IMG/VR virus record: IMGVR_UViG_3300009668_000001
DNA: 7,308 bases
Source: a virus
Direction: 5' to 3' (one strand)
The notes under the pieces were generated by a model, which worked only from the letters and a program-made list of their open reading frames with translations, was not told the DNA's origin and made no database searches. Position numbers and translations under genes: made by a program. Below are positions 1 through 7,308 of the stretch, piece after piece (position 1 is the stretch's first letter; each line of letters starts with the position of its first letter).

Positions 1-123
1 CAATTATACGTACCCGCACGGCATAGAAAAAAGCCGCGCTAGCGGCGATCAGACCACCAAGCAGCCCTGGCCCGGTGTCGTAATTCCCGGAAGAAAACCA
101 CGCCAGCGTGCTCGCTATCAGGG
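1..123. repeat. Terminal redundancy, copy 1 (identical to 7186..7308)
   Basis: Base-by-base comparison shows the 123 nt from caattatacgtacccgcacgg to ctcgctatcaggg are identical at both window ends. Confidence 0.97.
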
Positions 124-394
124 CCAGCATAACGGCACGCGACACAAAAGACCGCCAGAACTCGGCCCGCTTGGGGTTCCTTTCCTTCTGGCTTTCCAGG
201 TCGGCAAATACCATCGCAGGGTCTTGATTTAGCGTTATTGCCAGTTTGAAGGCAGCCTCTGCGCTGATATGTTGCTGTCCTAGTCTGTAGGCGCTGATTC
301 TTTGTCGGGTGGTCCCGAGTCTCTGCGCCAGTTCGTTATCCGATGTGATGCCAATCACGGCTTTTGCTGCGTCTAGGTATTCGCTCGGCGTCAT
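1..394 (-). CDS. Xre/cI-type HTH repressor with two predicted C-terminal TM helices (first 131 codons; the ORF continues across the circular junction into 7185..7121)
   Basis: ATG is the reverse complement of 392..394, preceded by GGAAGGA. My translation is MTPSEYLDAAKAVIGITSDNELAQRLGTTRQRISAYRLGQQHISAEAAFKLAITLNQDPAMVFADLESQKERNPKRAEFWRSFVSRAVMLALIASTLAWFSSGNYDTGPGLLGGLIAASAAFFYAVRVRII... The segment NELAQRLGTTRQRISAYRLG is a typical Xre helix-turn-helix. AVMLALIASTLAWF and LLGGLIAASAAFFYAV are hydrophobic helices. The ORF is missing from the supplied track because it runs off the window edge. Confidence 0.75.
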   Translation of the reverse strand, partial: MTPSEYLDAAKAVIGITSDNELAQRLGTTRQRISAYRLGQQHISAEAAFKLAITLNQDPAMVFADLESQKERNPKRAEFWRSFVSRAVMLALIASTLAWFSSGNYDTGPGLLGGLIAASAAFFYAVRVRII

Positions 395-529
395 GGTTTC
401 CTTCCCCTACTGATTTACTGCGTCAATCCATCCTAGTCCGATTTCTTGGGCTTGCAATGTCCAAGAATTAGGACAAGAATTCGCCTTGTCCGAATTTTGG
501 GACGTCACCTACAGCGAGGAGTCAAGGTC
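395..529. promoter_or_regulatory. Divergent control region between the repressor (-) and the structural/replication operon (+)
   Basis: This is a 135-nt gap between divergent start codons. The palindromic hexamer TTGCAA (452..457) could serve as a -35 on both strands. On the plus strand it is followed by a 17-nt spacer and AAGAAT (475..480). On the minus strand it is followed by a 16-nt spacer and TAGGAT (reverse complement of 430..435). CAAGAATT occurs twice (462..469 and 474..481). Confidence 0.45.
471..491. promoter_or_regulatory. Candidate operator palindrome GGACAAG-N7-CTTGTCC
   Basis: Perfect 7-bp inverted arms (471..477 and 485..491) are centred on GAATTC. The left arm overlaps the putative plus-strand -10 element. 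Confidence 0.4.
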
Positions 530-838
530 ATGCGAGTTACGGTCATCGGGGTTAAGAGAATGTCAGGGGTTGGCAAGGATTCGGGGCGCACGTTTGACTT
601 TGCGCAAGTCGAGGTTATGCGGCCGATGGAACAGTCTGCATCGCCAAAATTCAAGCTTCACGGGTTCGGCTTCGAAACCAGCAAGATCGACCTGGCGCCG
701 GATGTGCTGGAAAAGTTCAGGGAAGTCCGTTTTCCGGCCGTTCTCGATCTGGCTATTGAGACGGTCCCGGCCCGGCAGGGTCTGCGGTCCGTCGTTGTGG
801 GGTTCCGGCCAGCGGCCGACGTCAAAGCGGCGGCGTAG
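530..838 (+). CDS. Candidate ssDNA-binding protein (gene V-like), 102 aa
   Basis: ATG at 530 has GAGGAG (516..521) 8 nt upstream. The protein is small and looks beta-rich. Its N-terminal pattern MRVTVIGVKRMSGVGKDSGRTFDFAQVEV resembles the start of inovirus ssDNA-binding proteins such as Pf3 (recalled from memory). It is the first gene of the operon, next to rep. The function is inferred, not demonstrated. Confidence 0.55.
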   Translation: MRVTVIGVKRMSGVGKDSGRTFDFAQVEVMRPMEQSASPKFKLHGFGFETSKIDLAPDVLEKFREVRFPAVLDLAIETVPARQGLRSVVVGFRPAADVKAAA

Positions 839-840
839 TC

Positions 841-1185
841 ATGGCTACCGCTGTTGAGCGGTCTTGTCTGACTTGCAGGCACGCGCGCAAGGTGTCTCCG
901 GTCGTTGCCGGCCTGTCGCGTTGTCTGCTGTCTGATCTTGTCGGCCCGGTGTCGTCCATCTGTGGTTCGTTCGCTCCGTTGTCCGGTCGTCCGGTGGATC
1001 AGGTGATCGGGTTGTCTGTTGACGGTCGTCCGGTCCTGTTCGGGCAAGAGGTTTCTGCCGTTGCCTTTGATGCGTCGCTGTCCGATCTGCGGCAAGGCCC
1101 TGGCGGCCTGGGCGGTGGGTTGGAAAACGGTACGGTACAGTTACACGTACCGAAGCGGCCAAAAGTGGCCGATTTCGCCGCATGA
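841..1185 (+). CDS. Hypothetical protein, 114 aa
   Basis: It starts 2 nt after the preceding stop, and its TGA overlaps the rep ATG (ATGA at 1182..1185). The composition is unusual: rich in V/G/S/L/P/R/C and encoded by an A-depleted tract. I recognise no family. Confidence 0.5.
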   Translation: MATAVERSCLTCRHARKVSPVVAGLSRCLLSDLVGPVSSICGSFAPLSGRPVDQVIGLSVDGRPVLFGQEVSAVAFDASLSDLRQGPGGLGGGLENGTVQLHVPKRPKVADFAA

Positions 1186-2321
1186 AAACCTCAAGCCTGC
1201 CTTTTTCGTCTGTCTCGCCTGGGGTGGATTTGGCCTGCCCGGTCGGCCTGGATTGCTTCTGCGATTGGCTGACGGCGTATCAGGATCACGCGGAAGGCGG
1301 GCTTCCGGTGCTCAATGATGGCTATGCGGTCCGGTTCGGCCCGGAAGCCCTCAAGCGGGCCATTTGTCAGGATACCGGCGAACTGCGGACGTTCTTCGAT
1401 GCGTCGGAAGCCGAGTACACGGTGAGCCGGCGTATTGAGCACGAGGGGTCTTTCGATACTCGCCTCGCTATCCGGTGCGATGGCACGCGAGTCGAGCTAT
1501 CCGGCAATGTCGGGCGATTCGGACGGCCTGATAACCTCTTCGGCCTGTCGGTGCTGGATACCCTTCTGCGGGCCAACGAGATATTGCAGGCCCTGGGGTT
1601 GCCGGCGTTCTCGCATCTTGAGCGCAACGCGGGTCATGCACGCGATGACGGGTTCCACAAGTCGCACAACGTGGTGATTACCCGCGTCGATCTGACCGCC
1701 AATTTCGCAACGGGGAGCCGTGAGGCTGCGTTTCGGGTGCTGCACTGGATGAGCGGACAGGGCACCAGCCGCAACGCGGGCAAGAATCCCCGGAACTACG
1801 GAAACGGGGTTACGTGGAACGAGGGAAGTGCACGACATTACGAAAAGCTCTATTTCAAGGGTGATGAGCTAGGGCGGCATGTTTCGCCGGAAGTTGCGCA
1901 GTACTGCATAGACAACGGCATCCTGCGTTATGAGGTCAGTCTCAAGTCGAGGGAACTGGCGGATAGAAATCTACAGTCAATGGTCGCGTGGTCACGTGTG
2001 AATCAGGAGGGTTTGAGAATGGAACAGGTCATCTACGGGCGATTCGCCGAAGTACTCACGCGGAATCAGGTCACTGTTACGGAGATACAGGACATTCCCG
2101 GAAAGCTCGGCCTGATCGCTCGGTCGTATCTCAACGGGGAGAACCCCTACGAAACCGGATCGCCGGCCGTGCGCACGCGTCGACGGTGGCGTTCGCAACT
2201 GCTCAAGTACGGCCTGGATATTGCGCAGCCCTGCGACGTGATGCGCTTGACTACTCGGGTCCGGGTGATCGAGCTAGAGCCGGTCAGTGCTCCGGCGTGG
2301 TATTCCCGGATGGCTGCGTAA
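1182..2321 (+). CDS. Rolling-circle replication initiator, phage/plasmid gene II/X (CRI/RstA-like) family, 379 aa
   Basis: Three motifs read from the translation are characteristic of this Rep family: SGNVGRFGRPDNLFG (compare the GN..K...GHN.FG block), VITRVDLTANF, and HYEKLYFKGDEL followed by LRYEVSLKSRE (candidate catalytic Tyr region). Size and position also fit the RstA or gpII analog. Confidence 0.85.
   Translation: MKTSSLPFSSVSPGVDLACPVGLDCFCDWLTAYQDHAEGGLPVLNDGYAVRFGPEALKRAICQDTGELRTFFDASEAEYTVSRRIEHEGSFDTRLAIRCDGTRVELSGNVGRFGRPDNLFGLSVLDTLLRANEILQALGLPAFSHLERNAGHARDDGFHKSHNVVITRVDLTANFATGSREAAFRVLHWMSGQGTSRNAGKNPRNYGNGVTWNEGSARHYEKLYFKGDELGRHVSPEVAQYCIDNGILRYEVSLKSRELADRNLQSMVAWSRVNQEGLRMEQVIYGRFAEVLTRNQVTVTEIQDIPGKLGLIARSYLNGENPYETGSPAVRTRRRWRSQLLKYGLDIAQPCDVMRLTTRVRVIELEPVSAPAWYSRMAA
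2019..2321 (+). CDS. Candidate nested gene X-like product (in-frame internal start in rep, 100 aa)
   Basis: AGGAGG (2005..2010) lies 8 nt upstream of ATG 2019, which is in frame with rep since (2019-1182)/3 = 279. In Ff phages, pX is made in exactly this way from the C-terminal part of gene II. Confidence 0.4.
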   Translation: MEQVIYGRFAEVLTRNQVTVTEIQDIPGKLGLIARSYLNGENPYETGSPAVRTRRRWRSQLLKYGLDIAQPCDVMRLTTRVRVIELEPVSAPAWYSRMAA

Positions 2322-2837: not shown

Positions 2838-3071
2838 ATGAACCTCAACATCAAGCCGCGTTTCGGCCGCAAGGCATCTCTGGCCCTCGTTCTGGCCGTC
2901 TCGGCCGCTGCTGCACAAGCTGCGCTCCCGACGGAAGCTGCGGCCGCGTTCACCGGCATCTCCGACAACGTCACGGATATCCTGGCCGTGGTCTGGCCGA
3001 TCGTCGCCACCATGACGGGCGGCTTCGTGCTCATCAAGCTGTTCAAAAAGGGCGCCAACAAAGCGACCTAA
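2838..3071 (+). CDS. Major coat protein precursor (pVIII-like), 77 aa
   Basis: AAGGA lies upstream of the ATG. The signal peptide MNLNIKPRFGRKASLALVLAVSAAAAQA ends in AXA. The predicted 49-aa mature protein has an acidic N-terminus (E,D,D), a hydrophobic core (ILAVVWPIVATMTGGFVLI) and a basic C-terminus (KLFKKGANKAT). This is the classic inovirus coat architecture. Confidence 0.88.
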   Translation: MNLNIKPRFGRKASLALVLAVSAAAAQAALPTEAAAAFTGISDNVTDILAVVWPIVATMTGGFVLIKLFKKGANKAT

Positions 3072-3080
3072 GCAGTATCC

Positions 3081-3359
3081 ATGTCATCGGGTCTTGTCGT
3101 TGCGGCGGTCGTTTCGGCCGTCGCCATTGCCGGCACGAGGGTTCCGCCAGTTGGCTGTGCGGAGTCTTCCTCTGGGGCGCGCCTTTGTCTCTCGGATAAA
3201 CCGATCAGGGATACAAGGGAGCGGCAATACCTCGATGCTCATCCGGCCACTGTCGCACGGCCCGCACGGCCTTTCTATCCGGTCGGTCAGGTAGTCGATA
3301 ACCTTGATGCCGATTCGTTGATCCTGGGCCGATACGGCCAGCAGAGGGCCTACAAATGA
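3081..3359 (+). CDS. Hypothetical protein with N-terminal hydrophobic segment, 92 aa
   Basis: MSSGLVVAAVVSAVAIAG is a signal- or TM-like start. The stop overlaps the pIII-like start (ATGA at 3356..3359). There is no clear SD sequence and I recognise no family. Confidence 0.5.
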   Translation: MSSGLVVAAVVSAVAIAGTRVPPVGCAESSSGARLCLSDKPIRDTRERQYLDAHPATVARPARPFYPVGQVVDNLDADSLILGRYGQQRAYK

Positions 3360-4918
3360 GCGGTGATTTTCAGGCGTCAATGCGGCGCCTGTTGTGGTTC
3401 CTGATCGGTATCCTGATAGCGGCCGTCTGGCTGGTTCCGTCGGCGCGTGCTGAAACATGCTCGGCGGGTGTCTGCACTCAACCGGCAACCGTCGGGAGTA
3501 CGGTTCCCGCTTATCACTACTGGAAATCGGTAGCCAACATCGGACCTGAATACGCTGCGGCGGCCGCGTTGGATTACGCTCGGCTGTGCGGAACGAGGGC
3601 GCCTTCTGGCACTCTGGCTGCGGAGCCGACAAATCCAGCTAACGGTGCGTATTACACAACGGGTCAGTATTGCGTTATCGGCGGTGGCATTTACAACGCT
3701 TCCGTCTCGCATTGGGCGACGTGTAATACCACTCTCGGCGGTCCTGGCGGCACGATGTCAGGCGGCGCGGGTTCATACGTCTGTACCCTTCCAGGCTACT
3801 ACTGTCCGTCAACGGGCGGCTGGACGTTATCCGGCACCAACTGTACCCGGCCGGCCTGTGCGGAAGGCGAAACGAGACAACCTGACGGCACGTGCTTGAA
3901 ACCGTGCAAAATTGCCGAAAACGATCAGGTAGACCCTGGCGGCTACTATGAGGACACCGGGCACGGTGCAGAGGTCACGGACTGCGTTCAGGGTTGCCGG
4001 GTGTATATCGGTGGCAAAATTTTCAAGGAAGCCGGAAAAACCTACGGACAGGCATGGTCCTACGGCACTCCGTGCACAGGTTCCACTACTCCAGGAGTCG
4101 AGACTACCGAGCAAGACGAGGCGTGCGCCAAGCGGGGACTTTGCGGCGGCACGTTCAACGGTAAGCAGGTGTGTACGGCCTGCGACGAAACCAGCCAAAC
4201 CACGAAAACCACGAAAACCGAAACGCCAGAGGGCGGCGGCACGCCTGTTACCACCACCACCACCACCACCGAAATATGCAAGGAGTCCGGCAGTTGTACC
4301 ACCACCACCACCACAAGCTCATCATCGGGCGCGAGTAGTACCACCACCACCACAAAGCCGGGTGGAACAGCCAGTGGTGAGGGAATTACCCCAGGCGCAA
4401 CCGGAAATTGTGATACGGACGCCAGTGCTATCGAGTGCGCCAATTCAGCATACGAGGCTGCGCTCTGTTCAGCGGAGCCGGTCTGTTCAGGTGATGCCGT
4501 GCAATGCGCTCAGGCTCTCGAGGTCTGGAAAACCCGGTGCGAAGTCCTCAAGGCGCTAACGCCTGATGTTGCCGACGATGCCCCGATCAGCGGAGCCGAT
4601 GCAACGAAAGCCTCTCGCACGGCGTACCAGGAACAGATGGATACCATCAAAGATCAGATCACGGGTGCATTGCCTGATCCGTCTGCCGATTCCAAGTCTG
4701 CCTGGGAATCTGCCCTATCTACTGGCTGGTTCGATGCGATTACGATCACCGGCTGTACTGCTCAGGATTACGCCATCGGTCCCTACATCTGGCACTTTGA
4801 TCCATGTCCAACGGCCGAAAAAATCAGCGACATCGGCAGCTATGCGCTCTGGCTGTCTCTGGTTATCGGGGGCTTTGTTTTCGTAACTGGCGGACGTAAC
4901 GCGGGGATGAGTCACTAA
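3356..4918 (+). CDS. Minor coat / host-adsorption protein (pIII-like), 520 aa
   Basis: The signal peptide ends ...VPSARA, followed by ETC. Cys-rich N-terminal domains are joined by Thr/Ser-rich linkers (TTTTTTT, TTTTTTSSSSGASSTTTTT). The C-terminal hydrophobic anchor is YALWLSLVIGGFVFV. It is the largest ORF and lies between the coat gene and the pVI-like gene. An alternative start is M9 at 3380. Confidence 0.8.
   Translation: MSGDFQASMRRLLWFLIGILIAAVWLVPSARAETCSAGVCTQPATVGSTVPAYHYWKSVANIGPEYAAAAALDYARLCGTRAPSGTLAAEPTNPANGAYYTTGQYCVIGGGIYNASVSHWATCNTTLGGPGGTMSGGAGSYVCTLPGYYCPSTGGWTLSGTNCTRPACAEGETRQPDGTCLKPCKIAENDQVDPGGYYEDTGHGAEVTDCVQGCRVYIGGKIFKEAGKTYGQAWSYGTPCTGSTTPGVETTEQDEACAKRGLCGGTFNGKQVCTACDETSQTTKTTKTETPEGGGTPVTTTTTTTEICKESGSCTTTTTTSSSSGASSTTTTTKPGGTASGEGITPGATGNCDTDASAIECANSAYEAALCSAEPVCSGDAVQCAQALEVWKTRCEVLKALTPDVADDAPISGADATKASRTAYQEQMDTIKDQITGALPDPSADSKSAWESALSTGWFDAITITGCTAQDYAIGPYIWHFDPCPTAEKISDIGSYALWLSLVIGGFVFVTGGRNAGMSH
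4199..4354 (+). repeat. In-frame ACC (Thr) microsatellites and a 9-nt tandem repeat within the pIII-like linker
   Basis: accacgaaa x2 starts at 4199. (ACC)7 is at 4250..4270. (ACC)5+ACA is at 4298..4315. (ACC)4+ACA is at 4340..4354. All are in the pIII reading frame. Confidence 0.9.
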
Positions 4919-5289
4919 TGCCATTGCCAATTGTCGGCGGTCTTTTCGCCTGGATTCTGGGCCTTGTCGGAAGCACGGCTACGGCTGTGTTTACCTGGGT
5001 AGTCGCACGGCAAACTTTCACCATTGCCCTGCATTACGCACGCGTGACGGCCTTTGTGATGACAGCGGGCGCGTTGTTCCTGGGCGTGTCTCTGAGCATC
5101 AAGGCGGCGATCTTTGCGGCGCGAGTGGCGATGCCGAGTTCGCTCGGTATGGCGACCTATTTCCTACCCGGCAACATCAATACGGTCCTGGCGATATTCG
5201 TTGTGGTGCGCGTGTCTGCGGCCGTCTATGCCTGGACCTTGCGCAACATCAAAATTTATACCGGGATCGAATCCGGCAAGCTGATGTAA
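4918..5289 (+). CDS. Multi-pass small membrane protein (pVI-like minor coat; the family usually found just upstream of zot), 123 aa
   Basis: TAATG overlaps at both ends (4916..4920 and 5287..5291). There are about three hydrophobic helices. It occupies the gVI/ace position between the pIII-like gene and the Zot-like gene. Confidence 0.7.
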   Translation: MPLPIVGGLFAWILGLVGSTATAVFTWVVARQTFTIALHYARVTAFVMTAGALFLGVSLSIKAAIFAARVAMPSSLGMATYFLPGNINTVLAIFVVVRVSAAVYAWTLRNIKIYTGIESGKLM

Positions 5290-6194
5290 TGGCTGATTAC
5301 GCCATAACCGGGCGCAAGGGTTCCGGCAAAACGCTATTCGCTGTCGGGGTCATCCGGGATGCCCTTCGGGCGGGTCGTCGCGTTGCCACCAACGTCGACA
5401 TTCGCCTGGATGCCCTGCTCGGCCCTCGATCAAAAGCTATTCTCACTCGGTTACCAGACAAGCCAACGGCCGCCGATTTTGAGGCTATCGGACGGGGTCA
5501 GGCCGGCCCGGTCGAGGACGATAACGGGGTCATCGTCCTGGATGAGACGTCCACATTTTTCAACAGCCGCGCCTTTGGCGACAAGGACCGCCAGCCGCTG
5601 CTGGATTGGCTGGTGCATAGCCGCAAGCTCGGGTGGGACGTCTACTACATCTGTCAGGGTCTGGACCAGATAGACAAGCAGCTGCGTACCACCATGATCG
5701 AGTATCACATCATCGTTCGGCGCACGGACAAGTGGCCTATTCCTCTCGTAACACCGATCACGGCCGCACTCGGTTACCGGGTAGGTTTTCCGAAGTGCCA
5801 CATAGGCGTTTGCCGTCATGGTGTCGAGCGCGATGCCCTGATCGTCAAGCGCACGTTCTACCGGGCCAAAGACCTATTCAATGCCTACGACACTCAACAG
5901 CTATTTCTACCTCGCGACCATCCGGCCGCGTGCGGTGTCCATACCCTGCTGTCTGCTCATCTTGTTGCCGGCCGATATCTACCTGAGCCGCGGCCGTGGT
6001 GGTTGCGGTTTGCCTGGGGTCTGTTCGGCCGCGAAGCGCCACAAGTCGAGCCGCCTCGAACACTCAAGCCGAAATTGCCCTGCATTGCCGATCTGGCTAC
6101 CCTACCGCCAGAGCAAGCCATGCAGGAGTGGCGACGCTTGGATGCCCTGGGCGTGCTCGACAATCTCTACTCACGCACCGAACATCCTGGCTAA
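5289..6194 (+). CDS. zot: Zot / gene I-type phage assembly NTPase, 301 aa
   Basis: N-terminal Walker A GRKGSGKT (residues 8-15) and Walker B-like VIVLDE (81-86). The segment HTLLSAHLVAGRYLPEP resembles the SYLTPYLSHGRYF segment that precedes the TM helix of Ff pI (recalled from memory). The position after the pVI-like gene is canonical. Confidence 0.85.
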   Translation: MADYAITGRKGSGKTLFAVGVIRDALRAGRRVATNVDIRLDALLGPRSKAILTRLPDKPTAADFEAIGRGQAGPVEDDNGVIVLDETSTFFNSRAFGDKDRQPLLDWLVHSRKLGWDVYYICQGLDQIDKQLRTTMIEYHIIVRRTDKWPIPLVTPITAALGYRVGFPKCHIGVCRHGVERDALIVKRTFYRAKDLFNAYDTQQLFLPRDHPAACGVHTLLSAHLVAGRYLPEPRPWWLRFAWGLFGREAPQVEPPRTLKPKLPCIADLATLPPEQAMQEWRRLDALGVLDNLYSRTEHPG

Positions 6195-6210
6195 CAGTAT
6201 CAAATAATGA

Positions 6211-6236
6211 TTGACAAGCTCAAATTGTGATATAAT
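6211..6236 (+). promoter_or_regulatory. Sigma70-type promoter for the downstream regulator gene
   Basis: TTGACA (6211..6216) and TGaTATAAT (extended -10, 6228..6236) lie in a sharply AT-rich island. The spacer between these two hexamers is only 14 nt, so the extended -10 is probably the main determinant. AAGGAG (6253..6258) lies 6 nt before ATG 6265. Confidence 0.6.
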
Positions 6237-6264
6237 AGAATCTCAATAACACAAGGAGCCAGTC

Positions 6265-6570
6265 ATGAAAACCGATACCCGTAACCCGCTACGTGTTCAA
6301 CTAGAAATCGCCGAAACGCTGATCGAACCCCATTCCGAATGGTCGGCTGCGGAACTGATCGAGCGTCACGGCGTCAGCCTCGCAACTCTCAATCGCTACA
6401 TCGCCGAACTGCGGCGCATGGGTGCTCGAATCCAGTCCTCTGGCGGCGGCATGAATCCCTGGCATTACCGGATGCTCAACCGTGAGCAATGCGCCAAAAC
6501 TGTTAGCCGCTGGCTACAGTTGGAAACCGCACGGGACTTAACTTTCCTGGGCAAGTACGCCGATCAATAG
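6265..6570 (+). CDS. Small winged-helix/HTH DNA-binding regulator, 101 aa
   Basis: It has a strong SD and its own promoter. WSAAELIERHGVSLATLNRYIAELRRMGARI reads as a helix-turn-helix of the HTH_11/DeoR-N-like kind. It sits in the variable slot downstream of zot. Confidence 0.7.
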   Translation: MKTDTRNPLRVQLEIAETLIEPHSEWSAAELIERHGVSLATLNRYIAELRRMGARIQSSGGGMNPWHYRMLNREQCAKTVSRWLQLETARDLTFLGKYADQ

Positions 6571-6582
6571 TCATGCAATGTT

Positions 6583-6700
6583 CCAGGCGAACTGTATCAA
6601 GCCATGATGCAGACAACCTGGATGCGCAAGTCGGCCCGCTACCAGGCGAACTGTATCAAGCCATGATGCAGACAACCTGGATGCGCAAGTCGGCCCGCTT
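6583..6700. repeat. Perfect 58-nt direct tandem duplication (period 59 nt)
   Basis: 6583..6640 and 6642..6699 are identical: ccaggcgaactgtatcaagccatgatgcagacaacctggatgcgcaagtcggcccgct. They are separated by a single a. The period is not a multiple of 3. Confidence 0.97.
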
Positions 6701-6768
6701 TCCCCCATTCTTTTCTGTAGACCGCTTTGAACGGTGGAACTACGTGCGCACGCGTAGCGCCCGGTTGA

Positions 6769-6871
6769 GCCAGCGGTCGCGTTTTGTGCGGCCGCTGGTG
6801 ATTTACCGGGGCGGCGTCCGGTCGCCCCCAGCGACCGGGCGCCGATGCGGGAGCCGCCTGCAGATCGGCGC
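6769..6871 (+). other. Cluster of three GC-rich stem-loops (candidate packaging signal / minus-strand origin)
   Basis: HP1 pairs ccagcgg (6769..6775) with ccgctgg (6791..6797). HP2 pairs ccggtcgc (6818..6825) with gcgaccgg (6831..6838) around a 5-nt loop. HP3 pairs gcgccgat (6839..6846) with atcggcgc (6864..6871). All lie in the apparently non-coding 6571..7120 region. Confidence 0.4.
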
Positions 6872-6896
6872 GGGCGCCGGCGGCGGAGCCGCGAAA

Positions 6897-6924
6897 TCTG
6901 CCTGCCTACAATGTCTGCCTGCCT
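6897..6924 (+). repeat. Two 11-nt direct repeats tctgcctgcct (iteron-like)
   Basis: Copies are at 6897..6907 and 6914..6924, separated by acaatg and followed by ggggttttt. Confidence 0.6.
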
Positions 6925-7120
6925 GGGGTTTTTCGTTCTTCTCGATCTGCTTTCGTGAGCAATCATCCCATCCCACTTCGAGCGCCAGCAGTCCCGGTTT
7001 AACCTACGGCCGAATCAACAATACGCCTTTGCTTTTGCTGCCCTGGCTGCACAAGATTTCCCGGCTTCACCGGATGCCCTGCCCGGTCAGGGCTTCTGCG
7101 GTCCGTGCTTGCCAGACTCG

Positions 7121-7308
7121 CTACGGGTTCATGATTTGTTGCAATCGTTCATCACGATTTGATACGTATGGTTTATCATAATCGCCAATTATACGTACCC
7201 GCACGGCATAGAAAAAAGCCGCGCTAGCGGCGATCAGACCACCAAGCAGCCCTGGCCCGGTGTCGTAATTCCCGGAAGAAAACCACGCCAGCGTGCTCGC
7301 TATCAGGG
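7121..7308 (-). CDS. 3' part of the same repressor gene (second copy of the redundant segment plus a unique 21-codon tail; stop TAG at 7121..7123)
   Basis: Continuing the minus-strand frame from position 1 into 7185 gives ...RVRIIGDYDKPYVSNRDERLQQIMNP followed by a stop. The full ORF is 152 codons, joined as complement(7124..7185,1..394). Confidence 0.7.
   Translation of the reverse strand, partial: LIASTLAWFSSGNYDTGPGLLGGLIAASAAFFYAVRVRIIGDYDKPYVSNRDERLQQIMNP
7171..7199 (-). other. dif-like XerC/XerD recombination site (candidate attP)
   Basis: The minus strand reads GGTACGTATAA-TTGGCGA-TTATGATAAAC. E. coli dif is GGTGCGCATAA-TGTATA-TTATGTTAAAT. The match is 9/11 in each arm, with a 7-nt rather than 6-nt central region. 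The site sits in one of only two AT-rich patches of the genome. Bases 7186..7199 recur at window positions 1..14. Confidence 0.45.
7186..7308. repeat. Terminal redundancy, copy 2 (identical to 1..123)
   Basis: Same comparison as copy 1. This is consistent with a circular molecule or assembly overlap, or with reading into a second tandem copy. Confidence 0.97.

Follow-up and report, generated by a model that had tools for sequence, protein, structure and literature searches.

The repressor gene and its helix-turn-helix domain

The window, a stretch of 7,308 nucleotides of viral DNA (IMG/VR virus record IMGVR_UViG_3300009668_000001; positions below count from its first letter), carries a minus-strand gene for a candidate lysogeny repressor, in which an N-terminal Xre helix-turn-helix (HTH) domain is followed by a basic linker, two hydrophobic helices and a charged tail. 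The two ends of the window repeat each other, positions 1..123 being identical to 7186..7308 (123 bp), indicating a 7185-bp unit present as a circle or a tandem copy. Translation over this junction gave 152 amino acids (aa), in exact agreement with a preliminary description that had placed the sole minus-strand gene of the window at complement(7124..7185,1..394). It is the sole convincing gene on that strand and is divergent from an RstB-like (530..838) and a G2P/RstA-like (1182..2321) gene. The listed open reading frames (ORFs) hold no credible overlapping plus-strand ORF at 1..136 that would account for conservation there. The gene is composed as follows.

complement(7121..7185,1..394) with the stop codon, complement(7124..7185,1..394) without it, minus strand: repressor coding sequence, 152 aa, translated over the circular junction
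1..394, minus strand: 5' part of the coding sequence, codons 1-131 and the first base of codon 132; ATG at 394..392
directly upstream of the ATG at 394..392, minus strand: Shine-Dalgarno-like GGAAGGAAA
185..394, minus strand: N-terminal Cro/cI (Xre) HTH domain, residues 1-70; its HTH_3 part, residues 18-58, is 221..343
137..184, minus strand: basic linker and juxtamembrane motif ERNPKRAEFWRSFVSR, residues 71-86; F79, W80, F83 and R86 nearly invariant (alignments A1, A2)
86..136, minus strand: hydrophobic helix 1, residues 87-103, AVMLALIASTLAWFSSG; predicted to cross the membrane from cytoplasm to periplasm
68..85, minus strand: short loop, residues 104-109 (NYDTGP); predicted periplasmic
17..67, minus strand: hydrophobic helix 2, residues 110-126, GLLGGLIAASAAFFYAV; predicted to cross the membrane back to the cytoplasm; small-xxx-small motifs abundant
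7121..7185, minus strand: 3' part of the coding sequence, rest of codon 132 to codon 152; TAG stop at 7123..7121; episome-only tail GDYDKPYVSNRDERLQQIMNP

The canonical Xre HTH of the preliminary description was borne out by both profile and structure. Pfam HTH_3 (PF01381) matches residues 18-58 with 29.5 bits against a gathering cutoff of 23, and an AlphaFold model built on 36 homologues has helices at residues 3-14, 19-26, 30-38, 45-54 and 59-70, with a predicted local distance difference test (pLDDT) score of about 80-84. Foldseek superposed this N-domain on 434 Cro (root-mean-square deviation of 2.6 A over 61 residues) and also on P22 c2 and on C.BclI, which belongs to the controller proteins of restriction-modification systems. 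A profile search of the PDB and Foldseek searches against the PDB and BFVD matched the HTH domain alone and left the C-terminal half without a match. Pfam likewise offered no family for that half, so that of the two kinds of Pfam match envisaged at the outset, an HTH model and a family for the C-terminal half, only the former was obtained. RodZ is excluded, as a Pfam scan at E<=1 returned neither HTH_25 nor DUF4115/RodZ_C and a periplasmic domain is missing. Weak PADLOC matches to RmrA covered the N-terminal domain and linker alone and were rejected as evidence of membership in a defence system.

Within the basic linker, the juxtamembrane motif EFWRSFVSR is conserved. The same motif, in the form (L/F/I)W(K/R/E)S, is also found in Xf109 ORF10, phiRSS0 ORF13 and VGJphi ORF154, and at the C-terminal end of PM2 P16.

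Hydrophobic helices following the linker

The basic linker and two hydrophobic helices are present as quoted in the preliminary description, with AVMLALIASTLAWF falling within residues 87-103 and LLGGLIAASAAFFYAV corresponding to residues 111-126. Two runs of 19 and 20 residues, at 87-105 and 107-126, are free of D, E, K or R, and the hydrophobic stretches are separated by SSGNYDTGPG. Structure prediction, which had been suggested as a check, added continuous helices at 74-103 and 111-135 to the five N-terminal ones, with pLDDT below 50 for residues 103-115.

As a crude stand-in for TMHMM/DeepTMHMM, we summed a Hessa-type hydrophobicity over 17 residues and calibrated the sums on the phage's own proteins. 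The repressor helices scored 1.5 and 1.1. These values lie in the range of the phage's own transmembrane (TM) segments (coat TM segment, 1.9; pIII anchor, 0.85; pVI helices, 0.4-1.5), the coat signal peptide scoring 2.1, while the best segment of each soluble phage protein summed to at least 7.

The DNA that encodes the helices has an unusual pattern of divergence from relatives. Synonymous divergence (pS) is 0.09-0.55 in the TM-coding part (14-136) versus 0.44-0.77 in the HTH-coding part (185-394), and non-synonymous divergence is similar or higher in the former. Recombination near the phage attachment site (attP), codon bias and a constraint at the DNA level are possible causes of the low synonymous divergence. 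Sub-threshold NCBIfam/Pfam matches of the hydrophobic region to AzlD (E=0.005) and to Na+/H+ antiporter subunit B (E=0.006) are compositional and were not used as homology.

Conservation of the hydrophobic segment in the repressor family

Residues 1-102 match PHROG 638 ('transcriptional regulator') at 8e-21; the match to PHROG 4441 is at 2e-17. Matches were obtained by tblastn to VGJphi orf154 ('putative regulator protein'), VFJphi orf154, VCYphi, fs1, VSKK, Xf109 ORF10 and phiSHP2, with E from 2e-7 to 1e-3 for VGJphi, VFJ, VCY, Xf109 and phiSHP2. Xf109 ORF10 is annotated as an 'XRE-family DNA binding protein' and is Cf1cp8-like. Judged by these sequence relationships, the window protein is a member of the lysogeny-repressor family of dif-integrating inoviruses (phiRSS0 ORF13, VGJphi ORF154, Xf109 ORF10, "CTX-I RstR" and PM2 P16). 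The assignment of phiRSS0 ORF13 rests on architecture and common motifs, since this protein is missing from the tblastn matches at E<=1e-3.

A profile was built from residues 1-86 alone, lest the C-terminus bias the search, and 1.84 billion representatives were scanned with it. It found 4358 cluster representatives at E<=1e-3, 1094 of them at E<=1e-10. Hydrophobic segments were then counted in 136 proteins of 105-260 aa among the best 150 of the 4358. A 17-residue hydrophobic segment lies after residue 78 in 72% of them, starting at a median of residue 90 (interquartile range 88-96). Shuffling the C-terminal residues gave 24% (maximum 31%), and shuffling whole proteins gave 7%. The 12 residues before the segment contain on average 2.95 K+R, compared with 1.17 after it, consistent with a cytoplasmic N-terminus by the positive-inside rule. 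Segment sequences cannot be aligned between lineages and yet are still hydrophobic.

The family-wide comparison changes how two features of the preliminary description are to be read. The architecture that it set apart from classical soluble repressors is real, but it is not an oddity, being that of a known family with the same segment in several members. Of its two helices, helix 1 is conserved in position and character across the family at large, but helix 2 is lineage-specific, about 10% of representatives having two segments. In the window's clade helix 2 is conserved (LGG motif, with G114 nearly invariant), and it is missing from 123-aa forms. Xf109 ORF10 has two strong hydrophobic segments; phiRSS0 ORF13 and phiSHP2 ORF150 have one each.

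An attachment site within the gene and the exchangeable tail

A dif-like attP lies across the 3' end of the gene.

7171..7199, minus strand: dif-like attP, bounded by base 3 of codon 127 and base 1 of codon 137; read directly
7199..7189 (window 14..4), minus strand: XerC arm of attP, GGTACGTATAA
7188..7182 (window 3..1 and 7185..7182), minus strand: 7-bp spacer of attP, TTGGCGA
7181..7171, minus strand: XerD arm of attP, TTATGATAAAC

Integrated relatives of the phage reveal what happens at this site. In one of them, L018 (89% protein identity and about 84% DNA identity to the window), the right junction (attR) reads GGGTACGTATAA-TTGATA-TTATGTAAACT and the left junction (attL) reads AACTTCGTATAA-TTGACGA-TTATGATTTGC. 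These hybrid junctions place the crossover next to the XerC arm. The L018 protein ends in ...VRIIDIM* after 134 aa, and the proteins of L014-L017 end in ...RIICIM*, with host DNA beyond the stop. Integration thus replaces the 21 residues that follow RII, which makes them a feature of the episomal form alone. We conclude that attP very probably overlaps the repressor gene and swaps its tail, and its use for integration is predicted to be XerCD-dependent. The charged 26-aa tail of the preliminary description (RVRIIGDYDKPYVSNRDERLQQIMNP) is real and is encoded across attP; what had been missed is the overlap itself and the exchange of its last 21 residues on integration. An arrangement of this kind has been published for phiRSS0.

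How the reading frame ends varies among relatives. A TAA within the XerC arm (...GCATAA) serves as stop codon in the chromosomal homologues L005, L020 and L023, and the frame continues into the dif-like site in L004, L021 and L022. attP is annotated within the homologous genes in the records of VGJphi and Xf109. A tail motif, RLQ(Q/E/K)IM, is common to relatives, and phiRSS0 has RLQQAL. Truncation at contig ends was considered for 131-aa forms ending in ...RII and was ruled out, as L019 has an in-frame TGA in the attP spacer. At 2500-2580 of L019, the protein ends in ...RVRII at this TGA and the downstream DNA still reads DRRLQEIM in frame; its tail could have been recently interrupted, or the spacer exchanged by Xer recombination.

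An 8-nt motif, AAATCATG, was observed on the minus strand at 7130-7137, about 33 nt past the XerD arm. It is conserved in five sequences (window, L007, L018, L019 and L030), with 7 of 8 bases identical in all. It is kept whether translated or not and in any frame, the repressor ORFs of L007 and L019 stopping upstream of it, and, instead of belonging to a protein motif, it may act as a signal in the DNA or RNA close to attP.

In the integrated locus L004, a search with the E. coli dif consensus allowing up to 3 mismatches found no site. A local dif variant, GATAATGTATATTATGTAAAAT, is present at the end of the repressor gene, and in the 20 kb examined no second copy of this type appeared at the opposite end of the prophage. 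L004 (JGI 3300021167, a 670-kb contig, 93-10417) has a phage-integrase/Tn3-transposase cluster on one side and a type VI secretion locus on the other.

Operator-like sites and putative divergent promoters

The 135-bp region between the repressor and RstB-type genes (395..529) holds three imperfect 16-bp palindromes, together with putative promoter elements.

436..451, no strand: operator-like O1, GTCCGATTTCTTGGGC, imperfect 16-bp palindrome; fills the 16-nt spacer of the putative leftward (repressor) promoter
459..474, no strand: operator-like O2, GTCCAAGAATTAGGAC, with GTCC/GGAC half-sites; in the spacer of the putative rightward promoter
488..503, no strand: operator-like O3, GTCCGAATTTTGGGAC; 3' of the rightward -10
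452..457, no strand: palindromic TTGCAA, its own reverse complement; putative shared -35
475..480, plus strand: putative rightward -10, AAGAAT
435..430, minus strand: putative leftward -10, TAGGAT

The operator motif was found nowhere else in the genome. Six relatives have the same three-site layout, and their half-sites (GTGC/GCAC, GTCA/TGAC or GTGGC/GCCAC) vary with the repressor type. Between O1 and O2, ATTGCAAG is constant in five relatives with differing operators, and L005 has TTGTAA. A consensus promoter scan left the intergenic elements unflagged (score 8 of 12), and we therefore infer the back-to-back promoters from the conserved TTGCAA and its spacing. A repressor role fits the divergent layout, the three operators that co-vary with repressor type, and the published phiRSS0 and PM2 data. 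By these signs, the protein is very probably the family's lysogeny/immunity repressor.

Genome context and relatives

Judged from its genes, the window is an inovirus genome. Its other features are as follows.

7186..7308, no strand: terminal redundancy, same letters as 1..123; marks a circular or tandem template
530..838, plus strand: RstB-type protein (Pfam CTX_RstB)
1182..2321, plus strand: G2P/RstA-type replication initiator
2838..3071, plus strand: Gp8-type major coat protein
3356..4918, plus strand: pIII-like protein
4918..5289, plus strand: pVI-like protein
5289..6194, plus strand: Zot/pI protein, 301 aa
6265..6570, plus strand: HTH_11 regulator (Pfam HTH_11, 37 bits; weak match to a WYL-associated HTH in PADLOC)

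The whole genome matched none of 50,697 phage records in a megablast search, indicating that the phage is not a catalogued one; homologues were found at the protein level only, by tblastn. Repressor homologues of 81-99% identity occur in metagenomes, one of them (P0001, 99% identical to the window repressor) from a metagenome of activated sludge, the sample type assigned to the window as well. Integrated relatives reside in Azonexus, Rhodocyclaceae, Rugosibacter and Azospira genomes, which makes a host in the Rhodocyclales probable. Gene order around the repressor agrees with that in relatives. At 269-2485 of L028 (ERZ937821, activated sludge), a 99%-identical repressor and an RstB-type gene lie beside a gene of the trimethylamine methyltransferase family (MTTB), not a replication gene; this arrangement may stem from a chimeric assembly or from rearrangement of the element.

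No credible minus-strand ORF was found 3' of the repressor at 6571-7120, and close relatives are also without XafT. These roughly 550 bp are GC-rich and probably represent an intergenic (origin or packaging) region. Within them, 6583-6699 is a perfect 59-bp tandem duplication (2.0 copies, 100% match), non-coding and situated just 3' of the HTH_11 gene, towards attP. The HTH_11 gene region itself (6201-6570) is AT-rich, with TTGACA at 6201-6206 and an extended -10, TGATATAAT, at 6218-6226, and the gene is kept at the equivalent place in relatives L007-L010 and L030. Canonical pI is held in the inner membrane by a TM helix. The Zot/pI homologue of the window is without a hydrophobic segment, its best 17-mer scoring 7.2 and thus being soluble-like.

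A proposed membrane-anchored repressor and its alternatives

We propose the following model. HTH dimers would bind O1-O3. As the back-to-back promoters, with TTGCAA as their common -35, would have their spacers filled by O1 and O2, such binding would shut off the replication and structural operon and let the repressor regulate its own gene. The two helices would insert in the inner membrane as a hairpin with both termini inside and a periplasmic loop of 6-10 residues, so that the repressor would act from the membrane in the manner of bacterial transmembrane transcription regulators (TTRs). The hairpin probably also gives a dimer contact through its small-xxx-small motifs, since the protein has no other oligomerisation domain. 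In the preliminary description, such an anchor might link lysogeny or immunity control to membrane or assembly status, or act in superinfection exclusion; the 6-10 poorly conserved loop residues leave little room for a periplasmic sensor. Recombination on the XerC side of attP would then swap the tail after ...VRII for a few host-encoded residues, giving an episomal form of 152 aa and a prophage form of about 134 aa that have the HTH and anchor in common and differ in their cytoplasmic C-terminus.

The helices probably do lie in the membrane, and the statement as a whole, a membrane-anchored lysogeny repressor with an attP tail swap, is one that we favour on balance. Several observations weigh against it. 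The TM assignment comes from the Hessa-type stand-in for a dedicated topology predictor (TMHMM, DeepTMHMM). The segments are rich in Ala, Gly and Ser and moderately hydrophobic, with Kyte-Doolittle 19-mer maxima of 1.61 and 1.64 and slightly positive Hessa sums, and AlphaFold confidence is only 45-63 in this region. The ratio of non-synonymous to synonymous substitution rates (dN/dS) is 0.6-1.0 there versus 0.06-0.2 in the HTH, implying that residue identity is weakly constrained. In the Vibrio members VGJphi and VCYphi the segment is borderline and contains Arg or Lys, and it is lacking in about 28% of representatives and in PM2 P16, which implies that an anchor is not needed for repression as such. 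Finally, DUF3653 (XafT), a partner carried by VGJphi, Xf109 and PM2, was sought in all ORFs of the window and was not found; the window thus fits a phiRSS0-like arrangement and not the strict three-part CTX-I module.

Three alternatives give the C-terminal half another role. A soluble repressor, with the helices as the buried core of a dimer or tetramer like the C-terminal oligomerisation domains of cI-like repressors, would explain how a protein without any other oligomerisation domain meets palindromic operators that call for a dimer. Moderate hydrophobicity, small residues that favour helix packing and the continuous AlphaFold helices at 74-103 and 111-135 are all consistent with it. We nevertheless consider it unlikely. 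The 19- and 20-residue uncharged runs show no amphipathic alternation and score like the phage's proven-type TM segments, the C-terminal half matches no soluble-domain family or fold, and family members keep hydrophobicity, position and positive-inside flanks despite free drift in sequence, as in a lipid-facing helix and unlike a specific protein interface. It is also conceivable, but improbable, that the C-terminal half has little function of its own and is read-through from the HTH to attP/dif, its hydrophobicity being a by-product of GC-rich codons (Ala, Gly, Leu) or of a constraint on the DNA. The dN/dS value and unusually low synonymous divergence of this region, the dispensability of helix 2 in many relatives and the stop position dictated by the att site in many members (such as GCATAA in the XerC arm) point this way, as does PM2 P16, which stops right after LWRKS and is still described as a repressor. 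Such a by-product would hardly give a hydrophobic 17-mer in 72% of representatives versus 24% of C-terminal shuffles, within a start window as narrow as 88-96. The segment also occurs in lower-GC members and in phages of other genera (Xanthomonas, Stenotrophomonas and Ralstonia), and in dozens of diverged lineages about 40 additional codons are read without a stop.

The remaining alternative divides the labour: the HTH represses, and the hairpin serves a second, independent purpose in the membrane, such as superinfection exclusion via pilus or Tol-dependent entry, host modulation or toxicity. Small inner-membrane proteins, such as PfsE of Pf, do perform superinfection exclusion in other inoviruses. 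Moreover, phiRSS0 lysogens resist reinfection, and ORF13 of this phage alters host virulence and is not clonable under lacP, suggesting toxicity (PMC3816273). Ordinary repression explains lysogen immunity equally well, however; the similarity to defence systems in PADLOC is limited to the weak, HTH-only RmrA match, and the short periplasmic loop leaves little surface for a specific interaction. We therefore hold two separate functions to be unlikely and retain membrane-anchored repression as our reading.

Earlier publications cover the gene family, its role as a repressor and the position of attP inside the gene. We did not find the TM segment of these repressors described in the searchable literature (subscription papers being outside that scope), and the membrane aspect, a computational prediction, appears to be new, although the helices may already be marked in automatically annotated databases. 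In Vibrio, Ralstonia, Xanthomonas and Pseudomonas, virulence and biofilm behaviour are shaped by filamentous phages, whose lysogeny switches are poorly understood apart from those of CTXphi and Pf. A membrane-tethered repressor would confine lysogeny control to the compartment where the phage enters, replicates and is extruded. It would also give a reason for two puzzles of phiRSS0 ORF13: its toxicity when cloned and its changed behaviour before versus after integration. A wider generalisation is speculative and rather doubtful: that the repressors of a very large dif-integrating phage group (over 1000 clusters at 50% identity, from inoviruses that infect Beta- and Gammaproteobacteria and from related corticovirus-like prophages) are inner-membrane proteins whose cytoplasmic tail is rewritten by XerCD integration, an episome isoform with the RLQxIM tail and a prophage isoform both acting at the membrane. 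Were it true, such phages would possess a built-in means of sensing whether they exist as episome or prophage, tied to a switch that is confined in space. As the family is large (4358 representatives), its predicted topology simple and its operators readable from sequence, membrane tethering of the repressor is directly testable.

Comparison with known systems

The closest parallel is ORF13 of phiRSS0, a reverse-oriented gene for 156 aa with an N-terminal HTH and with attP (dif) inside its 3' end, so that integration cuts the protein to 130 aa (PMC3816273, Yamada 2013). The phiRSS0 lysogen is immune, and the authors of that study, who proposed a ligand-binding or regulatory C-terminus for ORF13, did not mention a membrane helix (PMC3816273). 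Like the window gene, ORF13 is a reverse gene for about 155 aa with an HTH, a W-containing linker (SLWEVF versus EFWRSF in the window), a hydrophobic segment after the linker, AALLLVLVASATNFV, and a dif-type attP in the 3' end; ERLQQ is present in both tails. ORF13 loses 26 aa (156 to 130), and in the window the 21 residues after RII would be replaced (152 versus 134 aa in L018). Unlike the window protein, ORF13 has one hydrophobic segment, not two.

VGJphi/VFJphi ORF154, VCYphi ORF11 and Xf109 ORF10 are homologous to the window protein over residues 1-103 with 25-33% identity and fall in the same PHROG. In VGJphi and Xf109, as in the window, attP lies within the gene and the gene is divergent from the replication genes, and Xf109 ORF10 also has the two strong hydrophobic segments. 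Both phages differ from the window by a XafT/DUF3653 gene directly downstream. 'CTX-I RstR', XafT and a dif-like attP have been described in a 2025 paper as a lysogeny module common to CTX-I inoviruses and corticovirus PM2, with PM2 P16 and 'CTX-I RstR' as transcriptional repressors (PMC12715192). PM2 P16 (ORF c) has the same N-terminal domain family (PHROG 4441), a homologous LWRKS and a leftward lysogeny-type operon with a dif-like attP. It differs in having 92 aa, ending at the juxtamembrane motif without a hydrophobic helix, and belonging to a dsDNA membrane-containing virus.

CTXphi RstR, lambda cI and 434 Cro resemble the window protein in their Cro/cI HTH fold, in divergence from the replication genes and in having multiple intergenic operators; unlike it, they have no TM segment. 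The window protein is also without a LexA-like cleavage domain. No similarity between 'CTX-I RstR' and the RstR of toxigenic CTXphi could be detected (PMC12715192).

With respect to its architecture, the window protein is best compared with the TTRs. A survey catalogued 50,302 of them, about 57% consisting of a DNA-binding domain and TM helices alone, with HTH as the commonest DNA-binding domain; phages are not mentioned there (PMC10269533). The TTR definition, a DNA-binding domain plus at least one TM region, describes the window protein with its HTH_3 domain and two TM-like segments, which were called here by the Hessa-type sum and in the survey by TMHMM. TTRs such as BcrR of Enterococcus and ToxR/CadC likewise join a cytoplasmic DNA-binding domain directly to TM helices, and that of BcrR is an Xre-type HTH. 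They are, however, signal-sensing regulators encoded on chromosomes and frequently have sensor parts that are periplasmic or multi-TM, whereas the window protein is phage-encoded, would have a loop of just 6-10 residues, and has a C-terminus rewritten by site-specific recombination. By this analogy, it may be regarded as a phage-encoded example of the transmembrane transcription regulators.

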